Source: an uncultured Gemmataceae bacterium
GTDB lineage: Bacteria; Planctomycetota; Planctomycetia; Gemmatales; Gemmataceae
Reading direction: 5' to 3'
DNA length: 64,000 nt
Assembly: GCA_963750165.1 (NCBI GenBank)
Contig: CAVVPN010000011.1
Location: 1,792,001 to 1,856,000, forward strand
Each line of letters starts with the position of its first letter. Positions within the stretch are counted from its first letter, which is position 1. The notes beneath the pieces were generated by a model. That model was not told where the DNA came from, did not search any database, and saw nothing but the letters and a program-made list of their open reading frames with translations. This document shows positions 29,225 through 43,604 of this stretch, one piece after another. Position numbers and translations under genes: made by a program.

Positions 29225-30121
29225 TCACGGCAGAATCTTGGTGGCGACATGATCGCCCGGCCGCGGCGCGTCGGCGTTCATCAGGCCGACGGGCCGTATG
29301 ATCCGGCCGACCGCCGCGTGCGCATACACCGCCGTCAGGCGCAGCCGGCCCAGGTACTCCGGTTGCGGCGACAACCGATACACCTCCAGTGTGTTGTTCT
29401 GCTCCAGACCGGCGTCGCTGCCCAGCGTGATCTGCACCAGGGTGGGATCCTGCTTGTCCACGCGGTCAATCAGCCCCTTGACGTTCACTCGCGGCGGGTT
29501 CTCGTAGTTGCGGTCGCGCACCGGCGTCGCGAGCCTGGCCACGTTGTCGCCGCCCGCGAGCTTGATCTCCAGTTCGTAAACCTTCTTGGTCAACTGCGTG
29601 ACCTGCGACAGCAGGGTCAGGGCGCGTTCGGTGGCCTTCTTGGCGTTGCTGTCGCTCTCGATGGCCCGGTTCGCCGACTGTGCAGCCGTCTTCTGCAACT
29701 CGGCGATCTCGTCCTGCCGCTTCTTGAGGTTGTCGTTCAGCACCCGGATTTCCATGCCGAGCCGCTCGGCCTCCTTGGTGGACATTTCGGAGTTGACGAC
29801 AGCCTTCTCGGCGACTTCCTTTTGCTGCTTGTAAGCATCTTCCTTTTTCTGCAGCACCAGGTGCAGCTTGCTTTGTTCGAGCCGGTTCTGGATGACAAAT
29901 GCGTCCAGTTCCTCCTTGTAGCGCTTCATCTGCGCGACCAGATCCTGCTTGGTCTTGGCGTCAGCTTCGGTATTGTAGCGCATGACCTTCAATTCTTCAT
30001 CTCGATCTTCATACGCCTTGTGCCATTGTTCGCGCTTCGCGAAGTCCACGACCAGGAAGGCCCCGGTCGCGACCGCGAACAGCAGGTTCACAATGACCAA
30101 CAACTTGCCCAACGTGTTCAT
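29225..30121 (-). CDS. Membrane-anchored coiled-coil protein with C-terminal beta domain
   Basis: GKLLVIVNLLFAV anchor, heptads, VQITLGSDAGL..LEVYR..YLGRLRL. Confidence 0.75.
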   Translation of the reverse strand: MNTLGKLLVIVNLLFAVATGAFLVVDFAKREQWHKAYEDRDEELKVMRYNTEADAKTKQDLVAQMKRYKEELDAFVIQNRLEQSKLHLVLQKKEDAYKQQKEVAEKAVVNSEMSTKEAERLGMEIRVLNDNLKKRQDEIAELQKTAAQSANRAIESDSNAKKATERALTLLSQVTQLTKKVYELEIKLAGGDNVARLATPVRDRNYENPPRVNVKGLIDRVDKQDPTLVQITLGSDAGLEQNNTLEVYRLSPQPEYLGRLRLTAVYAHAAVGRIIRPVGLMNADAPRPGDHVATKILP

Positions 30122-30311
30122 GATCGCCCCCTCGTCCAGGTCCCCCACCAGCCATTCACATGCGTGGGCGGCATGCGCTCCCCGGCTGGCGCTCCCCGGA
30201 ACGTGCGAACTGCTCGATCTCTCCCGAGACATTGAGGGTCGGGAGTATGCCAACCACCCCACGCCCTGTCAACCGCAATTCCTCGCCACGCACAATCTGC
30301 TCTTCTGCCGA

Positions 30312-31184
30312 TCAGGGCGCCGCGGCGAGGTTCTTCACGCCCAGTTCCTGTAACCGCTTGATCAGCCCGCGCCGCCGCTCCAGCAACAGCTGGGCGTTCA
30401 CCAGCTCGCGCACCCACAACGGCTGCACGTAATCGATCTCGCTCTTGAGCCGCTTCTGGGCGACCAACTCCATCTCCAGCAGATCATAATAGCCCGGCGT
30501 CTCAAGTTTGCCCATCTCGTCGCGCTTGCCGGTCACGCGCACCGTCAACTTCTTTTCCTTCTTGATCCAGTCATCGATCTCCTTGGACTTGGCCAGAATT
30601 TTCTCCATGACCTTCGCCAGATCCTCGTTGTAGACGGCGAAGGACTTGTTCACGTCCGGCAGCGGCTCCTGGAACATCGGTTTACCGATGCGCCTGCTCG
30701 TGTCGATCACGTCCTTGCCGTCCTTGTCCTTCTCCGGCTGGCCGTTCGTCTTGAGCACCGTCATGCCCGCCGGGCTCAGCGCGGGCCTGCCCGTGGCGTC
30801 GTCCAGCTTCAGGTCCTGCACGGCCACCGGATCCTTCGCGTTCTCCAGTTCTTCCATCTTGCGGACGTACTCCAGGTGGTTCCTGGCGAAGACCAGCTGA
30901 ATGCTATCGCGGTTGCGCTGGGCACGCTCCAGGTGGTACTCGGCGCGCGGCTGCGCGTCGATGGCCTGCTGCAGCGCCAGTATGCGCTTCTGCAACTCCG
31001 AGGGGATGGCCTCATTGGGCAGGCCCTTGTCGTCCTTCTTGTCCTTGGACGGCTCAACATACGCCTTGGTGGGCGTCTTCTTGCCCCAGTCCACGGGGTC
31101 GAGGTAGAGCGCCAGCGCCCAGGTCAGCATCACCACGCTGAGCATCAGGTTGACCAGCACCAGAAATTTGCCGATGAGGTTCAT
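30312..31184 (-). CDS. Membrane-anchored coiled-coil protein
   Basis: MNLIGKFLVLVNLMLSVV anchor; ATGA overlap with upstream gene. Confidence 0.75.
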   Translation of the reverse strand: MNLIGKFLVLVNLMLSVVMLTWALALYLDPVDWGKKTPTKAYVEPSKDKKDDKGLPNEAIPSELQKRILALQQAIDAQPRAEYHLERAQRNRDSIQLVFARNHLEYVRKMEELENAKDPVAVQDLKLDDATGRPALSPAGMTVLKTNGQPEKDKDGKDVIDTSRRIGKPMFQEPLPDVNKSFAVYNEDLAKVMEKILAKSKEIDDWIKKEKKLTVRVTGKRDEMGKLETPGYYDLLEMELVAQKRLKSEIDYVQPLWVRELVNAQLLLERRRGLIKRLQELGVKNLAAAP

Positions 31185-33489
31185 GGCTGCCTGGCCCCCT
31201 TCGCCTTGAGGTAGTTCCGCTCCAGCACGCGAATGCGCCGCTCCATTGCCTGGTTCTGTTGATCGACGAACGCCAGCTCCAGCTGCGCCCGGAACAGCTG
31301 CTCCTGCAATCGTTGCAAATCCTCCGTCAACCGCCGCGTCTCGGCGCGGGCGGCGACCACCTTGGCGAACAGCGCCGCGGAGTAAACGACGCGCTCGCCG
31401 TAGTGTTTGGCTCGCAGCTTCTCCTGGGCGACGATCTCCTGCAACCGCAGGTTGCGATCCTTGATGATCTCGTTGATGTCGCGGATGTTCCGCACCGCGT
31501 CCAGGTAGCGGCCCACGAAGCCGTGCGCGCGGATCGACCAGCCGGGCCAGTTCACGGTCGAACAGCGCCTGCCGCGGCCCGGGGTTGACGCCAACATCGC
31601 CCAGCGCGGCGTTGAAGTCCTTCAAAAACTCCTCGATGTCCTGCGGTGTGCGGCACTTGTCGCTGACATATTTCTTGACGCGCTTGACCAGGGCGTCCCT
31701 GTCCGCCGGCATCAGTTTCATCTCTTCCAGCAGCCCAATCAGGCTCTTGACGAACGGCTCGTAGGCCGGGTACATGAGCCGATACACTTCGCCCTCAAGC
31801 TTGTCCGCCGGGCCGATGTCCACGTTCGCATCAACCAGCACCTTCTTGAGTTCCTGCAGGAAGGCCACGTCGTCGGCCGCCGGCTTGTCCTCCTGGTCGA
31901 AGAAGAATTTGCGCACCGCCTTTTCCACGTCCTTGCTCGGCTCCTCGCCCTTCTGGCGGCGCAGCAGCGACAGCACGTCGCCACTATGGACCTCGTAGCG
32001 CTGCAGTCGCACCGGGTAGACGTACAGACCGCGGTCGCGCTCGATGGTGCGGACGATGCGCATCTGGACGCGCTCCACAAACGTGGCCAGGGTGTCGCAC
32101 GCCTGGGCGAGCGCCCGCGGCCCGACCAGCACCTGCAACCGTTTCAGGCCGTTCTCATAGAGATAGTTCGGCGTCGGGCCGCGCGGGCTCTCTTCCTCGC
32201 CTTCGACCTTGGCCTTGTCCTTCGGCGCCGGCGGCGGTTCGGCCTCCTCGGGGGGCTTCACCACCTGGTCGATGACCAGCAGCAGGAACGCAATGTGCTC
32301 GCGCTTCTCGACCGAATGCCGTTTCAGGCCGGACCAGATCGGCTGCGTGGAAATGGCCTCGTCCATGCGCGTCTGGAGCAGTTCCTCCATCTTCTCGATG
32401 CTGACAACGAACTTGCCCTTCTCGTCCAGGTCGGCGAAGCGCTCGACCCATTTGAACTGCTTCGGCGCCGCGGGCGCCTTCGCATCCGCGTCCTTCTTGT
32501 CCTTGTCGGCCCCGGAGGACGTGTCCGTAACCCAGTCGCTGTAGCGGAACTGCTCCAGGGGGTTGAGAATGTCCGCCAACATGCGCCGCTGGGCGGCTTC
32601 GACCAGGAACTTGTTCAACTCCTCGCCCCTGGTGTCGTTGATCTTCTTATCGAGGGCCTCGACCTGCTCGGCGGTCTGGGCCAGCGGCATGAGCAGGCGG
32701 AACAGCAGTTTGCGCTTGCCGGCGTCCGTGGTTTCCTTCTTGCCTGCTTCCTTGGCGGCCTCGCTGATGTCGTTCGGCAACTTCGACTTGAGGTTTTCAA
32801 CTTCCTTATCCAGCGTGCTGACCGGCTCGCCCGCCCCCGCGAATAACTCCTTGAGGAAGTCCGGCCCCAGGTCGGACGGCTTGAGTTTCACAATCGGCAG
32901 CTGACCGAAGAACGGCCGATACGGCACCTTGGGATCCGGAATCTTCATCTTGTTGCTGGCTTGCTTGAGCGCTTCCGGGCCGATGGCGATCCTTGGCTGG
33001 GTGCTCTGCGAGATGTCGCCGGGGCGCTGCTCGTTTTCCTTGATCAGCCCGCCTTCCCGGGCGGCGTCGTACAGGGCGACCGCGCTGAATCCTGTAGCGA
33101 GCGGTGAAGTCCATCACGAGCAGGTACACGAAGCCCACGGCGGCCAGGACGTTGAGCAGGATCAGGGCCAGGTTGAGCTTGGTCAGGCCGGGCTCGGGTT
33201 CTGCGTCAAACTCGCTGGCCGTTTCGCTGTGACCGGCGTCGCCGTCATCGGTGGCCGCGGCGGCGTGGGCTCCCTTGGCGGCGGGAGTGTCGGCGTCGTC
33301 ATCGGCAGCGACGGCAGGGGCGTCGTCATCGGCAACAACGGCGTCATCATCGGCGACAATTTCGTCATCATCGGCAACAACAGCAGCGTCATCATCATTA
33401 TCAGCGACAATTTCGTCGTCATCGGCGACAACGGCGTCTTCTTCCAGATCCAGATCGCTGTCGGGTTTGGGTTTTTTGTTTTTGGCCAT
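31181..33489 (-). CDS. Large membrane-anchored coiled-coil protein with Asp-rich repetitive N-terminus (frameshifts near 33090-32950 and 31540)
   Basis: VVADDDEI repeats, TM LNLALILLNVLAAVGFVYLL, coding-like sequence across ORFs 32806-33489, 30312-32948 and 31181-31597. Confidence 0.65.
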
Positions 33490-37749: not shown

Positions 37750-39087
37750 TCACAGCGTCTTCAAATACTCAATTACCGCCCGCCGCTGCTCCTCGGTGAA
37801 GTCGTCGCCGAAGGTGTGGCCGCCGTTGCCGCGGCCCGGCTGCGTCGTGTCGTAAGTCTTGCGGCGCTCGATCGGTGGCAGGGCGCCCGCCGGCGGCCGC
37901 TGCAACACCTGCACCTTCCAGCCGACGTTGACCTTGTCGTAATCCTCCTCGTTGGTGCGGAAGGAGCGCGTGTAAAGCTTCGGCCGCGCTTTCGAGTTGA
38001 GAACGCCGTACAGCGTCGCCACCGAGCCGTTGTGGAAATACGGCGCCGTCGCCCAGACACCGTCCAGCGGCGGCGCCTGATAGCCGGCCGTCTGCTTCAC
38101 CTTGCCGGTCAAGCCCGGCCGCTTTTCCTGGCCGAACCAGCTCCGATTGTAATAGTCCGCCCACTTGCTGCTGAAGCCGTCGAAGCGCGTGCGGTCGGTG
38201 CCGATCTCGTCGATGGGCACGACCTTGCTCGGATACGTCCAGTTTTCGCCGTAGGTGCCGTGACAGCTGCTGCAATTGCTCTTGAAGAGTTTTTCGCCCC
38301 GGGCGGCCAGTTCCTGGTTGACGGGGAAGGGGTATTTGGGGGCGCGGAGGCTGAGCAGGTAAGCCTGGATGTCTTCGAAGGTCGGCTCGGTATCGGCGAA
38401 CAGTTTGGGGCTGTTGGGCGGGCTGAGCATGAACTGCATCAGCGCCCGCACCGAGCGGGCGTGAGTGTTGCCGGTGAAATACATGGTCTTTTTCTTACGC
38501 AGGTGCCACCACGCCGGCACGTCCTCACACATCTGGTCATTGAAGCCGAGATCGACCTTTTTGAAGGTGATCTTCAGGTCCGGCTCGCGATGGGATAGCA
38601 GGAAAACCGCGAACATGCCGGCCTCGGAGGTGCCGCGGACATTGCTGAAGGTGAACGGCAGTCTGCCACTGCCGCCGCTGGCCTTGCTCAGTTCGGAGAA
38701 GACCGCCTCCACGTCCAGCGAGGCGTTGCCCAGGCCGATGTAGCTCTTGCCGAGGATGCTGCCGCCGTGGCAGATCATGCAGTCGCTGGCCAGGCCCTTG
38801 CCGAGCAGGTGCTTGCCGACACGCAGGCCCATCGGCAGACCGCCGTTCTCGTACGGCGCCGGGTGCAGACCGTAGCGTGCCCGAAACGCCGCGTCGTAGG
38901 GCTCCGGCTTCTTCTCAACGCCCCAGACCTTCCACGCCTCGTCGTAGGCTTTCAGCGACCAGATGCCCGGCGTGAACGCCTGCGTTGTCAGCGCTTTGTG
39001 GCCGCGCTCCGCCGGCGTGTCCGCTCGCACCGCCGCCAGCGCCACGCCGCCGACCAGCACCATCGCGAATACACCACTGCGCATCAT
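37750..39087 (-). CDS. Exported di-heme c-type cytochrome (RoxA-like family)
   Basis: Signal peptide, CMICH, CSSCH, IGTD.R, YQAPPLDGVWATAPYFHNGSV, GNGGH, IEYLKTL. Confidence 0.85.
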   Translation of the reverse strand: MMRSGVFAMVLVGGVALAAVRADTPAERGHKALTTQAFTPGIWSLKAYDEAWKVWGVEKKPEPYDAAFRARYGLHPAPYENGGLPMGLRVGKHLLGKGLASDCMICHGGSILGKSYIGLGNASLDVEAVFSELSKASGGSGRLPFTFSNVRGTSEAGMFAVFLLSHREPDLKITFKKVDLGFNDQMCEDVPAWWHLRKKKTMYFTGNTHARSVRALMQFMLSPPNSPKLFADTEPTFEDIQAYLLSLRAPKYPFPVNQELAARGEKLFKSNCSSCHGTYGENWTYPSKVVPIDEIGTDRTRFDGFSSKWADYYNRSWFGQEKRPGLTGKVKQTAGYQAPPLDGVWATAPYFHNGSVATLYGVLNSKARPKLYTRSFRTNEEDYDKVNVGWKVQVLQRPPAGALPPIERRKTYDTTQPGRGNGGHTFGDDFTEEQRRAVIEYLKTL

Positions 39088-39264
39088 GGCTCCATTCTCC
39101 TCGCCCTGGGTCGTCCCGGTCCCCCCTATTGTAGCGAGGCGGGCCAGGGGCTTGCGATCCCTATCCCACAAGCGTGCCTTTTGCTAAACTTTCCTGTGCG
39201 TTTTGCCGAGCCTGGCAACAACCTCTCCTCGTTCATTGCCCGCCTCCTTGTGAGAACCACCGCC

Positions 39265-40486
39265 GTGAACGTGCGCTTCCTGTATCTGGCCGTGAGTCTG
39301 GCCGGTTGTGCGCTGCTGACGCCCGGCGCCGGCCCCGCGCCCGCCGGCGATAAACCGAAAGGCCCCGTCTGGCTGACGGATTATGCGCTGGCACTGAAAG
39401 CCGCAAAAGAGAGCGGCAAACCGATCTTCGCCGTGTTCCGGTGACTGCACTGACCCGGCGCCGGGTTTGACGAGCAGGTTGCTCGTCTGGACAAGATCGA
39501 GGACGTGGCGCGGCACTTCGTGCTGCTGCAAATCGGTAGTATGCGGGGCGTCAACCTCGACGTGTTCGAGTTCGACTACGACCTGACGTGGATGGCGTTC
39601 TTCCTGAACGCCAACGAGAAGGTGTATGGCCGCTACGGTGGCCGCCCCGTGGAATCGCCGTCGAAATACTGGTCGCTGGACGGGCTGCGCAACGCCCTGG
39701 CCGCGGCGCTGGCGGCGCACCAGGCCGACCCGACGGCCAGGCCGCCGCTGCGGCCCGCGGAGCCGCGCCGCCCCGAACAGTGGCCGGCCGCTCAGCGGTT
39801 GCCGGCGAAGGCGTGCATCCACTGCCATCATGTATGGGAGTTCCGCCGCGCTGATTTGCAGGCGCGCAGCAAATGGACGACGGACGAGGTGTGGGTTTAC
39901 CCGCGACCAGAGAACGTCGGTCTGACCATTGATGTGGTGGCCGGCAACCGCGTGACGCAGGTGGCGCCGAACTCCGCCGCGGCGAAGGCGGGCGTGCTGG
40001 TCGGCGACCGCCTGCTGCGCCTGAACGACCTGCCCGTGGCCTCGTACATGGACGCGCAGTACGCCCTGCACAAGGCGCCGGCAGGGCCGTGTCCCGCTGA
40101 CCTGGCAGCGCCAGGGCAAGCAGCTGAAGGGCGAACTGACGCTGGCGGCCGGCTGGCGACGGACGGACGTGTCGTGGCGCTGGTCGCTGCGCAGCCTGGA
40201 GCCGGGACCGCAGCTGGACGGCTACGATTTGACCGCGGAGGAGAAAAAGGCGCTCGGCCTGAAGCCGAAGCAGCTGGCGTTCAAGCAGGGGGCGTTCGTG
40301 CCGCGCACCGCCCAGCAGGCGGGCATTCACATCGGCGACACCATCGTCGGCGTGGACGGCAAGCAGCCGGAGCTGACGTTTCGCCAGTTCGACGTTTACA
40401 TTCGGCTGAATTACCGCGTCGGTGATGAGGTGACGTATCAGATCATCCGCCAGGGCAAGCGCATGAATGTGAAGCTGAAATTGTGA
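39265..40486 (+). CDS. Exported thioredoxin-fold/CxxCH/tandem PDZ protein with two in-frame TGA codons (candidate selenoprotein); frameshift near 40090
   Basis: Signal peptide, WLTDYALALKAAKESGKPIFAVFR-TGA-L-H-TGA-PGAGFDEQV in frame with ORF 39505; YGRYGGR, CIHCH, SAAAKAGVLVGD, AQQAGIHIGD. Confidence 0.8.
39469..39487 (+). promoter_or_regulatory. Candidate bacterial SECIS apical hairpin
   Basis: gacgagc-aggtt-gctcgtc; G-containing loop about 24 and 33 nt downstream of the two TGAs. Confidence 0.65.
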
Positions 40487-40539: not shown

Positions 40540-41757
40540 ATGAATCGACTGATCTTCGCCACCGTGCTGACCGCCGTTGCCTTCGCTGCCCGCGCGGCCG
40601 CGCCGACCGCGCCCCAGGAGCAAAAACCCGGCGAAAAGTTGCTCGCGGTCCGGTGCCTGGCCTTTTCGCCCGGCGGAACCTGGCTCGCCGTCGGCGGCGG
40701 GTCGGACGGCACCGGCGTGTCCAAACCACGGTACGTCGGTGACGGCTTCGTCCGCGTGTACTCCGTCAGGGGCGTGCTGGGCAACGTCAAAAAAGACCTC
40801 GCCGGCGCCCTCCATCAGACGAACTTCACGAATTTTGTCGGTCTTGTCGGCTTCGTCGATGAGGGCACGGTGGCGACGGTGAGCCAGGAACGGAAGCAGA
40901 CCGTCGGCAGCGCCCCGCCCTACGACGGCGTGCGCGTCACCCGGTTCGCGGTGCCGGGCGGCAAGGAACTGAAGCGCATCCCGCTGGGCGATTGCCTGAA
41001 TGGCCCGCCGAGCATGGGTTATCACCCGTCCAGCGATCAGGTGAGCTACTGGTCGAACACCTTGACCGTGGGTGGGTCGGTGCTGGCGAAGCTGGGCGGC
41101 GGCAAGGCCGGCAAGGGCGGCGGCAAGGGGCTGCCCGCCGGGGAAGCGACCCGCGCCCCCAACTACCGGCTCGATCAGGGGCCGGGCGCCGCCCACCGCT
41201 ACTTTTCGCCGGACGGCAAGGCGCTGCTGACGTGCCCGCCGTTCCACGAACCGGGCAAGAAAGGCATCGGGCCGGCGTCGAGCGTGGTGACCGATTCGCT
41301 GCTCCGGCTGCACGAGACGACCACCGGTAAGGTGACGGCGGCGTTCGACCCCGACGGCGCGTTCGTCGCCTGCGCGGCGTTCGCGCCGGACGGCCAGCGC
41401 CTGGTGCTGGCCTGTCACAATCAGCGGGTGTACGTGTTGACCGGCGACCTCAAGCGCGTGGTCCGTGTGGTCCCGGTCGGCGCGGCCTGTGCGGCCGTGG
41501 CGGTGGCGCCGGACGGCCAGTCCTTCGCCGCGGCGACCGCCGCCGACACGATGAAGGTTTATGAGATCGGCTCCGGGAAAGTCCGTCATTCCCTGGAAGG
41601 AATCAAGGAAGGCGTCAACTGCCTGGCGTTTTCGCCGGACGGCGCCCTGCTGGCGGTCGGGTGTGGCGACGCCGGCCAGTTTGGTCGGCCGGTGGGGCCG
41701 GGCAGCGTCCGGCTGTTCGACGCGCGCACGGGAAAACTGCTCGTGACCCTGAACTGA
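40540..41757 (+). CDS. Exported WD40-repeat protein
   Basis: Signal peptide; AFSPGG/AFAPDG/AFSPDG repeats. Confidence 0.85.
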   Translation: MNRLIFATVLTAVAFAARAAAPTAPQEQKPGEKLLAVRCLAFSPGGTWLAVGGGSDGTGVSKPRYVGDGFVRVYSVRGVLGNVKKDLAGALHQTNFTNFVGLVGFVDEGTVATVSQERKQTVGSAPPYDGVRVTRFAVPGGKELKRIPLGDCLNGPPSMGYHPSSDQVSYWSNTLTVGGSVLAKLGGGKAGKGGGKGLPAGEATRAPNYRLDQGPGAAHRYFSPDGKALLTCPPFHEPGKKGIGPASSVVTDSLLRLHETTTGKVTAAFDPDGAFVACAAFAPDGQRLVLACHNQRVYVLTGDLKRVVRVVPVGAACAAVAVAPDGQSFAAATAADTMKVYEIGSGKVRHSLEGIKEGVNCLAFSPDGALLAVGCGDAGQFGRPVGPGSVRLFDARTGKLLVTLN

Positions 41758-41765
41758 GGTGGCCC

Positions 41766-42899
41766 ATGCAATCCCTGGTTCGGCGACTGACCGTGACGGT
41801 GGTGGGGCCGGCGTGCCTGGGCCTGCTGCTGGCCTGCCCGCCGGCGGCGCACGGCGACGACACGAAGTACCCCGTTGTCAGCGTGGCGTTTTCACCGAAG
41901 GGAACGTGGCTGGCCGTGGGCGGCGGCGTCAACAACGGCTCCACCGTCGGCAAGCCGAAGATCAGCGCCGGCGCCCTGCGCGTGTTTGACACCAGGAAGT
42001 ACCAGGAAAAGGCCAGTTTCCACGACCCGTTCAAGCACAGCGTCTTCCAGTGCGCGTTCGCCGACGAGGACACCGTGATCGGCGTCGCCCACCGTTTCAA
42101 CACGAAGAACTTCCTGGGCACCGGCGTGTACCGGTTCTCCGTCGCGAAGCGCGCGCCGGCCGGCGACGTGCTGAACCTGGGGAACCGACAAAGCGCGAAC
42201 GAGGTGATGGCCTTCCACTGGCCCTCCGGCCTGGCCTGCCTGTACGGTCAGAGTTTCAGCAAGAACACTTACCTGAAGAACCTCAACGCCGGCGCCACGC
42301 AGCGGGGGCGGTCGCTCTATTTCAGCAGCCCGGGCGTCCTGTGTTTTGCCCCCGACGGCAAGACCCTGTTGCTCAGCCCGCCGCGGCACAACCACCGGCC
42401 GGGAGCGGCGCAGAGCCTGCCGCTGAAGGATTGCGTCCTGCGGCTGTACGACACCGCGTCGGGCAAGCTCGCCGGCCATTACATCCCGGACGACGTCTTC
42501 GCCGAGGCGGCGGCGTTCTCGCCGGACGGCAAGCGCGTGGTCCTCTCCTGTCAGGACGACCGCCTGTACCTGCTGACGGCGGACCTGAAGCAAACGGTGG
42601 ACGTGTTCCAGGTCGGCCATTGTTCACGGTTGCTGGCGTTCAGCCCGGACGGCCGCACCATCGCCACGAAGGCCGCCGCGGAGACGGTGCAGCTGCGGAA
42701 CGCGGCCACGGGCAAGGTGGTCCGGGCCCTGGACGGCCACGAGGGCGGCGTCAACTGCTTCGCCTTTTCGCCCGACGGGGCGCTGCTCGCGGTGGGCTGC
42801 GGCCCACTGACCGGCAAGGCGGCGGAGAAGAAAACGCCGGGCCATGTCCGCGTCTGGGACGTGAAGACGGGCAAGTCCGTCGCGGTGATCGATTTTTGA
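41766..42899 (+). CDS. Exported WD40-repeat protein, tandem paralog
   Basis: GTWLAVGGG and VNC.AFSPDGALLAVGCG shared with the upstream gene. Confidence 0.85.
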   Translation: MQSLVRRLTVTVVGPACLGLLLACPPAAHGDDTKYPVVSVAFSPKGTWLAVGGGVNNGSTVGKPKISAGALRVFDTRKYQEKASFHDPFKHSVFQCAFADEDTVIGVAHRFNTKNFLGTGVYRFSVAKRAPAGDVLNLGNRQSANEVMAFHWPSGLACLYGQSFSKNTYLKNLNAGATQRGRSLYFSSPGVLCFAPDGKTLLLSPPRHNHRPGAAQSLPLKDCVLRLYDTASGKLAGHYIPDDVFAEAAAFSPDGKRVVLSCQDDRLYLLTADLKQTVDVFQVGHCSRLLAFSPDGRTIATKAAAETVQLRNAATGKVVRALDGHEGGVNCFAFSPDGALLAVGCGPLTGKAAEKKTPGHVRVWDVKTGKSVAVIDF

Positions 42900-42908
42900 A
42901 GCACGTCG

Positions 42909-43604
42909 ATGCAGATCCTGTTTGAAGACAACCACTGCCTGGCCGTCGCCAAGCCACCGGCGCTGTTGACGCAGGGGGTGCCGCCCGGCATTCCGACGCT
43001 GGAGGCGCTGGTCAAAGCCTACCTGAAAGAAACCTATCACAAGACCGGCAACGTCTACCTGGGCATCCCGCACCGGCTTGACCGGCCGGTCTCGGGGGTG
43101 GTGCTGTTCGCCCGCAACACCAAGGCCGCCCGCCGCCTGGCGGAGCAGTTCCAGCAGCGCCAGGTCACCAAGCTCTACTGGGCGGCGGTCGAGGGCAATG
43201 TGCAGCCGGCCGCGGACACCTGGCACGACTGGCTGCGCAAACTGCAAGAGGAGTCCCGCTCCGAACGCGCCGCGCCGGGCAGTCCGGGGGCGCGTGAAGC
43301 GGTGCTGGAATATCGCACGCTCGGGCCGTGCGCCGGCGGCACTGTGCTGGAACTGCGGCCGCAGACCGGCCGCATGCACCAGCTGCGTCTGCAAGCGGCG
43401 CTGCGCGGCTGGCCGATCCGCGGCGACCAGCTCTACGGCGGCAAACTGCCCTTCGGCCCGCCCGCGGAACTGCCGCGCGACCGCATCATCGCCTTGCATG
43501 CCCGCAGCCTCACCTTCCTGCACCCCATCCGTTACGAACCCATCACCGTCGTCGCCCCGCTGCCCGCCGCCTGGCAGGAACTCGACACTCAGCTGCCGGG
43601 CTGA
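42909..43604 (+). CDS. RluA-family RNA pseudouridine synthase
   Basis: AVAKP, HRLDRPVSG, TGRMHQLR, PIRGDQLYG, ALHA. Confidence 0.92.
   Translation: MQILFEDNHCLAVAKPPALLTQGVPPGIPTLEALVKAYLKETYHKTGNVYLGIPHRLDRPVSGVVLFARNTKAARRLAEQFQQRQVTKLYWAAVEGNVQPAADTWHDWLRKLQEESRSERAAPGSPGAREAVLEYRTLGPCAGGTVLELRPQTGRMHQLRLQAALRGWPIRGDQLYGGKLPFGPPAELPRDRIIALHARSLTFLHPIRYEPITVVAPLPAAWQELDTQLPG

Follow-up and report, generated by a model that had tools for sequence, protein, structure and literature searches.

Results

Gene layout and sequence quality

The window, i.e. the whole stretch of 64,000 nucleotides from an uncultured Gemmataceae bacterium that was analysed, contains on its forward strand a gene of the Trx7/PDZ (seleno)protein family with two in-frame TGA codons, two hairpins, a CIHCH motif and two PDZ domains (Table 1). 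The extent of the gene was determined by tblastn with an intact homolog, which aligned to two abutting frames. The TGA CTG CAC TGA at 39442-39453 lies in the reading frame of a hydrophobic N-terminus and of a thioredoxin-like domain, as described in an earlier note made from the DNA letters alone. The CIHCH motif and the PDZ domains named there were recovered as well, the latter by Pfam search. The earlier note had the same frame continuing to the end of the gene; instead we found a break, and the second PDZ domain sits in another frame. A lipobox-like LAGC was present at residues 12-15, and none was seen in the homolog N-termini inspected.

Table 1. Features of the two-TGA gene, in window coordinates.
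Feature	Position	Strand	Remarks
Whole gene, Trx7/PDZ (seleno)protein	39265..40486	+	about 407 codons allowing for the two-base assembly gap; NF041199 match
GTG start and predicted export signal	39265..39345	+	hydropathy
Thioredoxin-like domain (Thioredoxin_7 / AGR2-like)	39370..39720	+	PF13899, AGR2 profile, 3f9u match
First TGA (UGA1), site 1, putative Sec60	39442..39444	+	three residues before the canonical nucleophile (AGR2 register)
Second TGA (UGA2), site 2, putative Sec63	39451..39453	+	canonical nucleophile position (aligns with the AGR2 Cys)
Spacer (helper) hairpin	39452..39467	+	6 pairs, 4-nt loop, -8.0 kcal/mol
SECIS-like core hairpin	39469..39487	+	8 pairs, GGU loop at 39477-39479, -11.1 kcal/mol
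CIHCH, candidate heme c attachment motif in small helical insert	39814..39828	+	CxxCH conserved
PDZ domain 1	39907..40160	+	spans the frame break, end approximate; PF17820 E 1e-8; structure model
Frame break	40077..40080	+	two bases missing; most likely assembly error
PDZ domain 2	40310..40483	+	PF13180 E 8.4e-7; true stop 40484-40486 directly after

Contigs from four of ten listed public runs were compared with the gene region. A short-read contig with no substitution over 39921-40152 had two extra bases at the frame break, and a second public run showed a 2-base insertion at the same place. A deletion in the assembly is therefore the most likely explanation of the break. The run that yielded the identical contig may be the source sample; when raw reads of the same strain were sought, the best public run shared at most 7% of the words of the stretch. 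Both TGAs were spanned by three contigs of other runs, with no substitution there among the rows listed, and the motif was also spanned by one contig from an RNA library, contigs as such giving no proof of transcription. Elsewhere in the window, at 29225-33489 on the reverse strand, several reading frames seem to change frame mid-gene, which fits more assembly indels.

No conserved neighbourhood was found in the 76 of 209 flanking frames that were scanned, so the gene context gives no substrate. Upstream of the gene lies a divergent gene for a RoxA-like di-heme cytochrome c (37750-39144, reverse strand), which was not seen beside the homologs scanned. Downstream (40540-43604, forward strand), a WD40 gene is followed by another gene of similar appearance and by one for an RluA-type pseudouridine synthase, which is also found downstream of a close homolog (L154).

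Family, domains and predicted fold

The NF041199 profile matched the two frame pieces with 283.1 bits (profile positions 3-250) and 114.8 bits (257-390), and hence spans positions 3-390 of its 390 over both. Each piece alone falls below the cut-off of 300 as a result of the frame break. The features of NF041199 were present, namely an export signal (from hydropathy), a Thioredoxin_7 domain and PDZ domains, and a TGA occupies the second position of CxxU as in that family; here site 1 is a TGA too. On the thioredoxin-like domain PF13899 gave an E value of 1.5e-5, under its curated cut-off, and the AGR2 profile one of 1.8e-8, while PF00578 (AhpC/TSA) had no match in the gene at E values up to 1. 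Named relatives were mostly from Gemmataceae and other Planctomycetota, and an Atlas search returned only clusters of the Trx7/PDZ family, without names.

L060, an intact UxxU homolog that shares 59% identity with the window piece, was modelled with AlphaFold2 from a 40-row alignment, with Cys in place of Sec; the model reached a pLDDT of 94 and a pTM of 0.90. A thioredoxin fold and two PDZ domains were recognisable in it, along with a small helical insert, and the homolog model matched 3f9u with Z 12.8 and an rmsd of 2.4 over 113 aligned residues. PDB searches returned no solved structure with the full Trx-CxxCH-PDZ-PDZ architecture and no cytochrome match, a missing match not being the same as a new fold.

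The earlier note had placed the two TGAs exactly where the CxxC belongs, which needs correction. By an ungapped sequence-profile alignment, on which the register depends, the second TGA corresponds to the nucleophile of the AGR2 CxxS/CxxC and the first lies three residues upstream, while the resolving position has no Cys. The canonical thioredoxin pair (nucleophile and +3) is thus absent: the nucleophile is site 2, no Cys occupies +3, and site 1 falls at -3. In the same kind of alignment a third Cys of the family falls on the resolving position of AGR2. This Cys was kept in 197 of 235 homologous loci and lost in the window gene, and its loss here makes a Sec60-Sec63 diselenide plausible in the window protein. 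It was kept in 78 of the 99 UxxU loci, so that across the family a diselenide is not the sole possible bond.

CxxCH was found in all 228 loci that were long enough, in 227 of them as CxHCH, and the source genome carries two PF01578 cytochrome c assembly genes. The motif suggests that the insert likely binds heme c; the near-invariant extra His leaves a metal site as a possible alternative. The insert had neither a cytochrome family match in Pfam nor a structural match, and neither a sixth heme ligand nor a cytochrome fold was recognised.

Selenocysteine machinery and tRNAs

Genes for selA, selB, selD and tRNA-Sec (selC), on which the double-Sec reading of the earlier note had been made to depend, were all found above their cut-offs in the source genome, which is 93% complete and has one selB and one good tRNA-Sec. 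selA was present in 232 of 252 family genomes. Among the 77 genomes with two-TGA matches, a strong tRNA-Sec (at least 59 bits) was found in 73, selB in 72 and more than one selB in 3. Of the next-best tRNA-Sec-like matches, 19 of 20 examined were ordinary Ser/Leu tRNAs and one was a long tRNA-Cys. No SelC*/tRNA-ReC (long-arm tRNA-Cys, second selB) was found in the source genome, an absence that its 93% completeness does not prove.

A second 'tRNA-SeC' called by ARAGORN (C11:1435205) was rejected: its fold is broken, it lies inside a long reading frame and it has no Rfam match. A tRNA-Cys(GCA) of the source genome is odd in that its acceptor seems to have 8 bp and its T stem 4 bp (L174, G000:C11:2270722-2270801, reverse strand). 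It has no SelC* long variable arm, lies in a tRNA array and has a similar sequence in 3 of 252 family genomes, and it was discarded as a general Cys recoder. Another planctomycete with a UxxU gene carries a 96-nt tRNA-Cys(GCA) that scores 50.8 bits on the tRNA-Sec model (L306, G158:C7:12873-12966) and is possibly a SelC*-type tRNA.

Motif census across homologs

We collected 235 homologous loci, which were selected by the pattern C/U-x-x-C/U, so that the following counts are not unbiased frequencies: 99 UxxU, 118 CxxU, 18 CxxC and no UxxC. Site 1 was accordingly TGA in 99 and Cys in 136 loci, and site 2 TGA in 217 and Cys in 18, i.e. both TGA positions have Cys in homologs, as expected for Sec codons in the earlier note. 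Since UxxC was not found among the 235 loci, a TGA at site 1 occurs only where a TGA at site 2 and a SECIS exist. The discovery set consisted of 157 loci, of which 151 had the motif (5 had none and 1 lay at an edge; 119 were unique); the motif start of one locus (L130) was shifted by hand. The held-out set of 120 loci (116 unique) comprised every one of the 113 other TGA-bearing rows of the 150 listed in a phylum-wide search of 401 genomes, with 29 further rows outside this list, as well as five of 36 stop-free rows and two rows from other searches.

Two or three TGAs were present in 73 of the 150 phylum-wide matches listed. The UxxU form is thus common in the Trx7/PDZ family, and its rarity had been overstated. 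The prediction that standard annotation would split such genes was borne out, as a pattern search found the N-terminal motif absent in 126 of the best 150 library matches. A FastTree computed from 227 of the 235 loci, with the motif and hairpin codons removed, required at least 34 changes between TGA and Cys at site 1; a smaller IQ-TREE quick tree required 13, 6 of them forced by starred branches.

Several variants were observed in the census. In a short subfamily (L031, L065, L067, L114, L115, L118) the protein has about 275-283 residues and stops once the first PDZ domain is complete; four of the six are UxxU, and the spacer is two codons shorter in two. Two genomes carry tandem pairs of UxxU paralogs (L178/L183 and L179/L189). 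The source genome itself has, besides the window gene, an all-Cys paralog (CxxCxxC) without a SECIS hairpin (L129, G000:C11:2121661-2122422, reverse strand), whose frame stops early, possibly through another assembly indel.

The SECIS-like core hairpin

The SECIS-like hairpin seen in the earlier note proved real, with the pairs and the GGU loop given in Table 1, and it is unlikely to be there by chance: such a hairpin 20-28 nt downstream was found for 59 of 232,866 TGAs in the genome and for 4 of 5,158 TGA-6nt-TGA pairs. Counted from UGA2 and UGA1, the loop is 23 and 32 nt downstream, compared with 26 and 35 nt as the norm in the family; the SECIS consensus gives 16-37 nt from UGA to loop (PMC13188914). 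The criteria applied for a bacterial SECIS were a loop of 3-9 nt, a stem of 4-16 bp, a G in the first two loop positions and an MFE at or below -7.5, and all of these agree with the 3-nt GGU loop, the 8 pairs, the two distances and the folding energy of the core hairpin. Folded alone, the 79-nt region was not unusually stable (z -0.10 against shuffles), and the evidence for the hairpins is for this reason comparative.

At least 6 of the 7 outer core pairs could form in 83 of 99 UxxU and 100 of 118 CxxU loci and in 1 of 18 CxxC loci, that is in 183 of 217 TGA loci versus 1 of 18 Cys loci. The 19-nt hairpin is encoded within the codons for D-(E/G)-Q-V-(V/A)-R. The Arg codon of the stem was the rare CGT in 170 of the 187 TGA loci that have Arg there, against a background of 10.9% in the rest of the genes, and changes on both sides of the stem occur among the loci.

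A genome-wide scan for TGA plus hairpin gave mostly noise when no coding filter was used. With a codon model, the window gene and two other clear candidates were left. These two are candidate UxxC selenoprotein genes with W-U-P-F-C and G-U-I-N-C (G000:C12:1195919 and G000:C3:2187769, both reverse strand), and their GGU-containing hairpin loops lie 20 and 25 nt downstream. By this measure UGA2 of the window gene is at the usual distance from its loop and UGA1 is far. On contig C10 of the same genome (60931-60940, reverse strand), two TGAs three codons apart are followed by a 15-bp hairpin, which probably represents a stop and a terminator.

The spacer hairpin and its tie to the upstream TGA

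The palindrome pointed out in the earlier note (39453-39466) is real and forms part of a second hairpin between UGA2 and the SECIS. We consider this UxxU-associated hairpin, which the note had understated, the most informative feature of the gene. In the window gene it was within the most stable 1-3% of synonymous recodings, in a spacer that is one codon shorter than the family norm. A spacer hairpin was called when the sequence between UGA2 and the SECIS folded at or below -3 kcal/mol. By this definition it was present in 20/30 UxxU, 14/76 CxxU and 2/13 CxxC loci of the discovery set. The prediction was then fixed in writing before the held-out set was run, where the hairpin was found in 64 of 69 UxxU versus 13 of 42 CxxU loci (all 116 loci) and in 49 of 53 versus 8 of 22 when only the 80 script-anchored loci were counted. 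Over all loci it occurred in 84 of 99 UxxU, 27 of 118 CxxU and 3 of 18 CxxC, so that 15 UxxU loci are without it at this threshold and 27 CxxU loci have one. The spacer was in the most stable tenth of its synonymous recodings in 57/99 UxxU, 12/118 CxxU and 0/18 CxxC loci, and a downstream control window showed no comparable excess of stable folding.

The association was also seen when relatedness was taken into account. Clade contrasts, for which the larger tree was the FastTree, favoured UxxU in 29 of 34 cases over all branches, in 19 of 23 at a support of at least 90 and in 12 of 14 at a support of at least 95 (sign test p 0.013). A stricter random-pair test with 14 starred pairs gave a weaker result, 8.3 for and 1.4 against, with median p values of 0.039, 0.11 and 0.07 at three thresholds; on the discovery set it had only 4 pairs and was uninformative. 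Across the family the spacer hairpin is thus shown to be associated with the upstream TGA.

What is conserved in the spacer hairpin is the structure and not the sequence or register, which differ between lineages. Because of this a single fixed pairing register explains it weakly (0.59 vs 0.38 paired). The distance from UGA1 to the start of the stem is 7-12 nt, and 7-16 nt remain single-stranded between the hairpin and the SECIS. Shortened spacers were confined to UxxU loci in the discovery set (3/30 vs 0/89), the window gene being one of them. Across the family, spacer residues seem shifted to suit the hairpin, with K-D-C-x-S-F in UxxU and K-D-C-S-K/E-F in CxxU loci; held-out loci such as L200, L231, L251 and L257 are examples, and changes on both sides of the spacer stem were seen in L231 and L233.

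Discussion

Proposed decoding of the two UGA codons

The window holds, in our view, a single Trx7/PDZ gene in which both TGAs are likely read as Sec by SelB on the one GGU-loop hairpin, with the spacer hairpin likely assisting UGA1; we put the probability of this reading at about 0.7. The earlier note's proposal that both TGAs are read through in one exported Trx-CxxCH-PDZ-PDZ protein gains support from the Sec genes, the Cys homologs and the hairpins. Its suggestion of one SECIS for two UGAs agrees with distances of 23 and 32 nt that both lie within 16-37 nt. In the mechanism we propose, SelB on one SECIS would serve both codons. While UGA1 occupies the A site, the spacer hairpin would lie folded immediately beyond the ribosome and reduce the single-stranded distance to the SECIS stem from 27 nt (24 nt in the window gene) to some 7-16 nt. 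After moving on by three codons the ribosome would melt the spacer hairpin, and UGA2 would meet the SECIS at the usual distance.

Alternatively, with both codons still read as Sec, the spacer hairpin could make the ribosome pause or stimulate read-through, in the manner of the eukaryotic Sec redefinition element (SRE), and not serve as a length adapter. We regard this as the less likely role, although pausing fits the data nearly as well as compaction and the data do not separate the two, which are not mutually exclusive. The position of the stem 7-12 nt after UGA1, the conservation of its structure but not of its sequence or register, and the SRE of SelN as a precedent (PMC3541580) agree with pausing, and both UGAs lie within the consensus distance without any compaction. 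The finding of shortened spacers only in UxxU loci suggests, on the other hand, that distance matters, though this concerns only three loci. A SECIS of its own for UGA1, with its own SelB, fits worse than either pausing or compaction and is improbable. A G in the first two loop positions occurs in 63 of 84 spacer hairpins, and 44 of the 84 have a loop that begins 16-17 nt after UGA1, but much of this G is due to a Cys codon at that place, and among hairpins without a spacer Cys codon it was found in 7 of 15. GU occurs in 13 of 84 spacer loops versus nearly all core loops. The spacer hairpins thus depart from the SECIS consensus in the loop G, and that of the window gene also in distance, its loop being only 13 nt from UGA1, below the consensus minimum of 16 nt.

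Slightly less probable still is a reading of the first UGA as Cys, by tRNA-ReC/SelC* or a near-cognate tRNA, which would make the protein chemically CxxU. tRNA-ReC is reported to be enriched in genomes with UxxU hydrogenases (PMC13582414), and odd tRNA-Cys(GCA) species occur both in the source genome (8/4-like) and in another UxxU genome (96 nt). Against this, the former is without the long variable arm described for SelC* (PMC5389517), sits in an array and is found in few family genomes, a second selB is missing here and rare among two-TGA genomes, and nearly all of the next-best tRNA-Sec-like matches examined were Ser/Leu tRNAs. That the gene is broken or split, the TGAs being true stops or sequencing errors, seems very improbable. 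The assembly does contain indels, one of them inside this gene, and an in-frame start lies within 15 codons after site 2 in 15/30 UxxU and 15/76 CxxU loci. TGAs at both sites are nevertheless found in 99 distinct loci, three contigs of other runs span both codons with no substitution there among the rows listed, and the hairpins impose codon choice; the remainder of a split gene would have no export signal, and a fold predicted as one unit (pLDDT 94) would be cut.

The predicted protein and the significance of the gene

Under the preferred reading of both codons as Sec, the product would be an exported thioredoxin-fold oxidoreductase with Sec63 as its nucleophile. With the usual resolving Cys lost, Sec60 would be the most likely partner of Sec63, in a diselenide bond. 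Heme c is the likely ligand of the CxHCH insert, which would relay electrons, and the two PDZ domains are likely to bind client proteins. More tentatively, and with odds slightly below even, we suggest that the spacer hairpin represents an unlisted bacterial cis recoding element. Conserved in structure only, it would telescope the mRNA so that one position-dependent SECIS serves two UGAs, and within a single Planctomycetota family it would have been gained or lost on many occasions together with the upstream Sec. The UxxU members of that family would be exported diselenide-heme oxidoreductases with a non-canonical redox register.

The two-TGA gene of the window is real and well supported as a variant of a known selenoprotein family, and this variant is less rare than had been held; the gene most likely contains one assembly error, and by profile alignment its redox register is shifted. 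Its value is the co-occurring spacer hairpin. Each bacterial Sec codon has been described as having its own SECIS after it (PMC3541580), and a 2026 paper does not settle how one SECIS could serve a UxxU pair (PMC13582414). In the Trx7/PDZ family, nature provides dozens of contrasts between CxxU and UxxU genes, with the core SECIS unchanged and a spacer hairpin that goes with the upstream UGA. This makes double Sec decoding in bacteria directly testable by a reporter experiment, and a design rule for two-Sec proteins made in bacteria is suggested. In addition, a family that catalogues list with one Sec, and most of whose genes gene callers cut short, gains a common two-Sec form. A literature search, with subscription journals and supplements largely outside its reach, returned nothing on a UxxU form of the Trx7/PDZ family or on a bacterial spacer hairpin, and the hairpin is unmentioned in the accessible sections of PMC4807772.

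Comparison with known systems

The Trx7/PDZ family has been known as a selenoprotein family since 2008. Its reference 61 in the 2026 review PMC13188914 we take to be PMC2398784. A 'putative secreted serine protease MucD' with CxxU was reported there (PMC2398784), and the PDZ family is tabulated as CxxU in PMC9312934, under the name 'PDZ domain-containing protein', and in PMC13188914, in the latter with one Sec. The entries NF041199, 'MucD' and that of PMC9312934 have in common with the window gene the architecture, a TGA at the CxxU position and a SECIS in the coding region. Compared with the listed CxxU members, the window gene adds the site-1 TGA and the second hairpin, has lost the third Cys and has a spacer one codon shorter, and contrary to the name 'MucD' its protein has no protease domain.

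The nearest solved relatives of the thioredoxin domain are the AGR2/AGR3/ERp18-type folds. MamP, which likewise combines PDZ domains with c-heme motifs, was matched with Z 10.7 over 84 aligned residues, a match only of PDZ size that does not validate the heme insert.

The two Sec of SelL sit on the canonical CxxC and are reported to form a diselenide; relative to these, the Sec pair of the window protein is shifted by one register. SelL and Prx-like proteins (PF00578, UxxC/UxxU) likewise have two Sec three codons apart in a thioredoxin-superfamily fold, but they are another, Prx-like family without PDZ, and for SelL two Sec and one SECIS have been described (PMC3541580). UxxU has been listed for Prx-like/SelL, a metal-binding protein, FmdB and Group 4 hydrogenases. 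In the UxxU Group 4 [NiFeSe] hydrogenases sporadic switching between CxxU and UxxU on the tree was also found, and one SECIS was proposed for both UGAs, with 'additional factors' left open (PMC13582414). There, UxxU is a metal-ligand motif in a different fold, and tRNA-ReC is enriched, unlike here. A spacer hairpin is not described in the sections of that paper that were consulted, whose supplementary SECIS figures may bear on it.

The SRE of eukaryotic SelN resembles the spacer hairpin: it too lies in the coding region, immediately 3' of a Sec UGA, and helps a SECIS located elsewhere. The SRE is eukaryotic and its SECIS lies in the 3' UTR, whereas the spacer hairpin is bacterial, variable in sequence and tied to the upstream of two UGAs.
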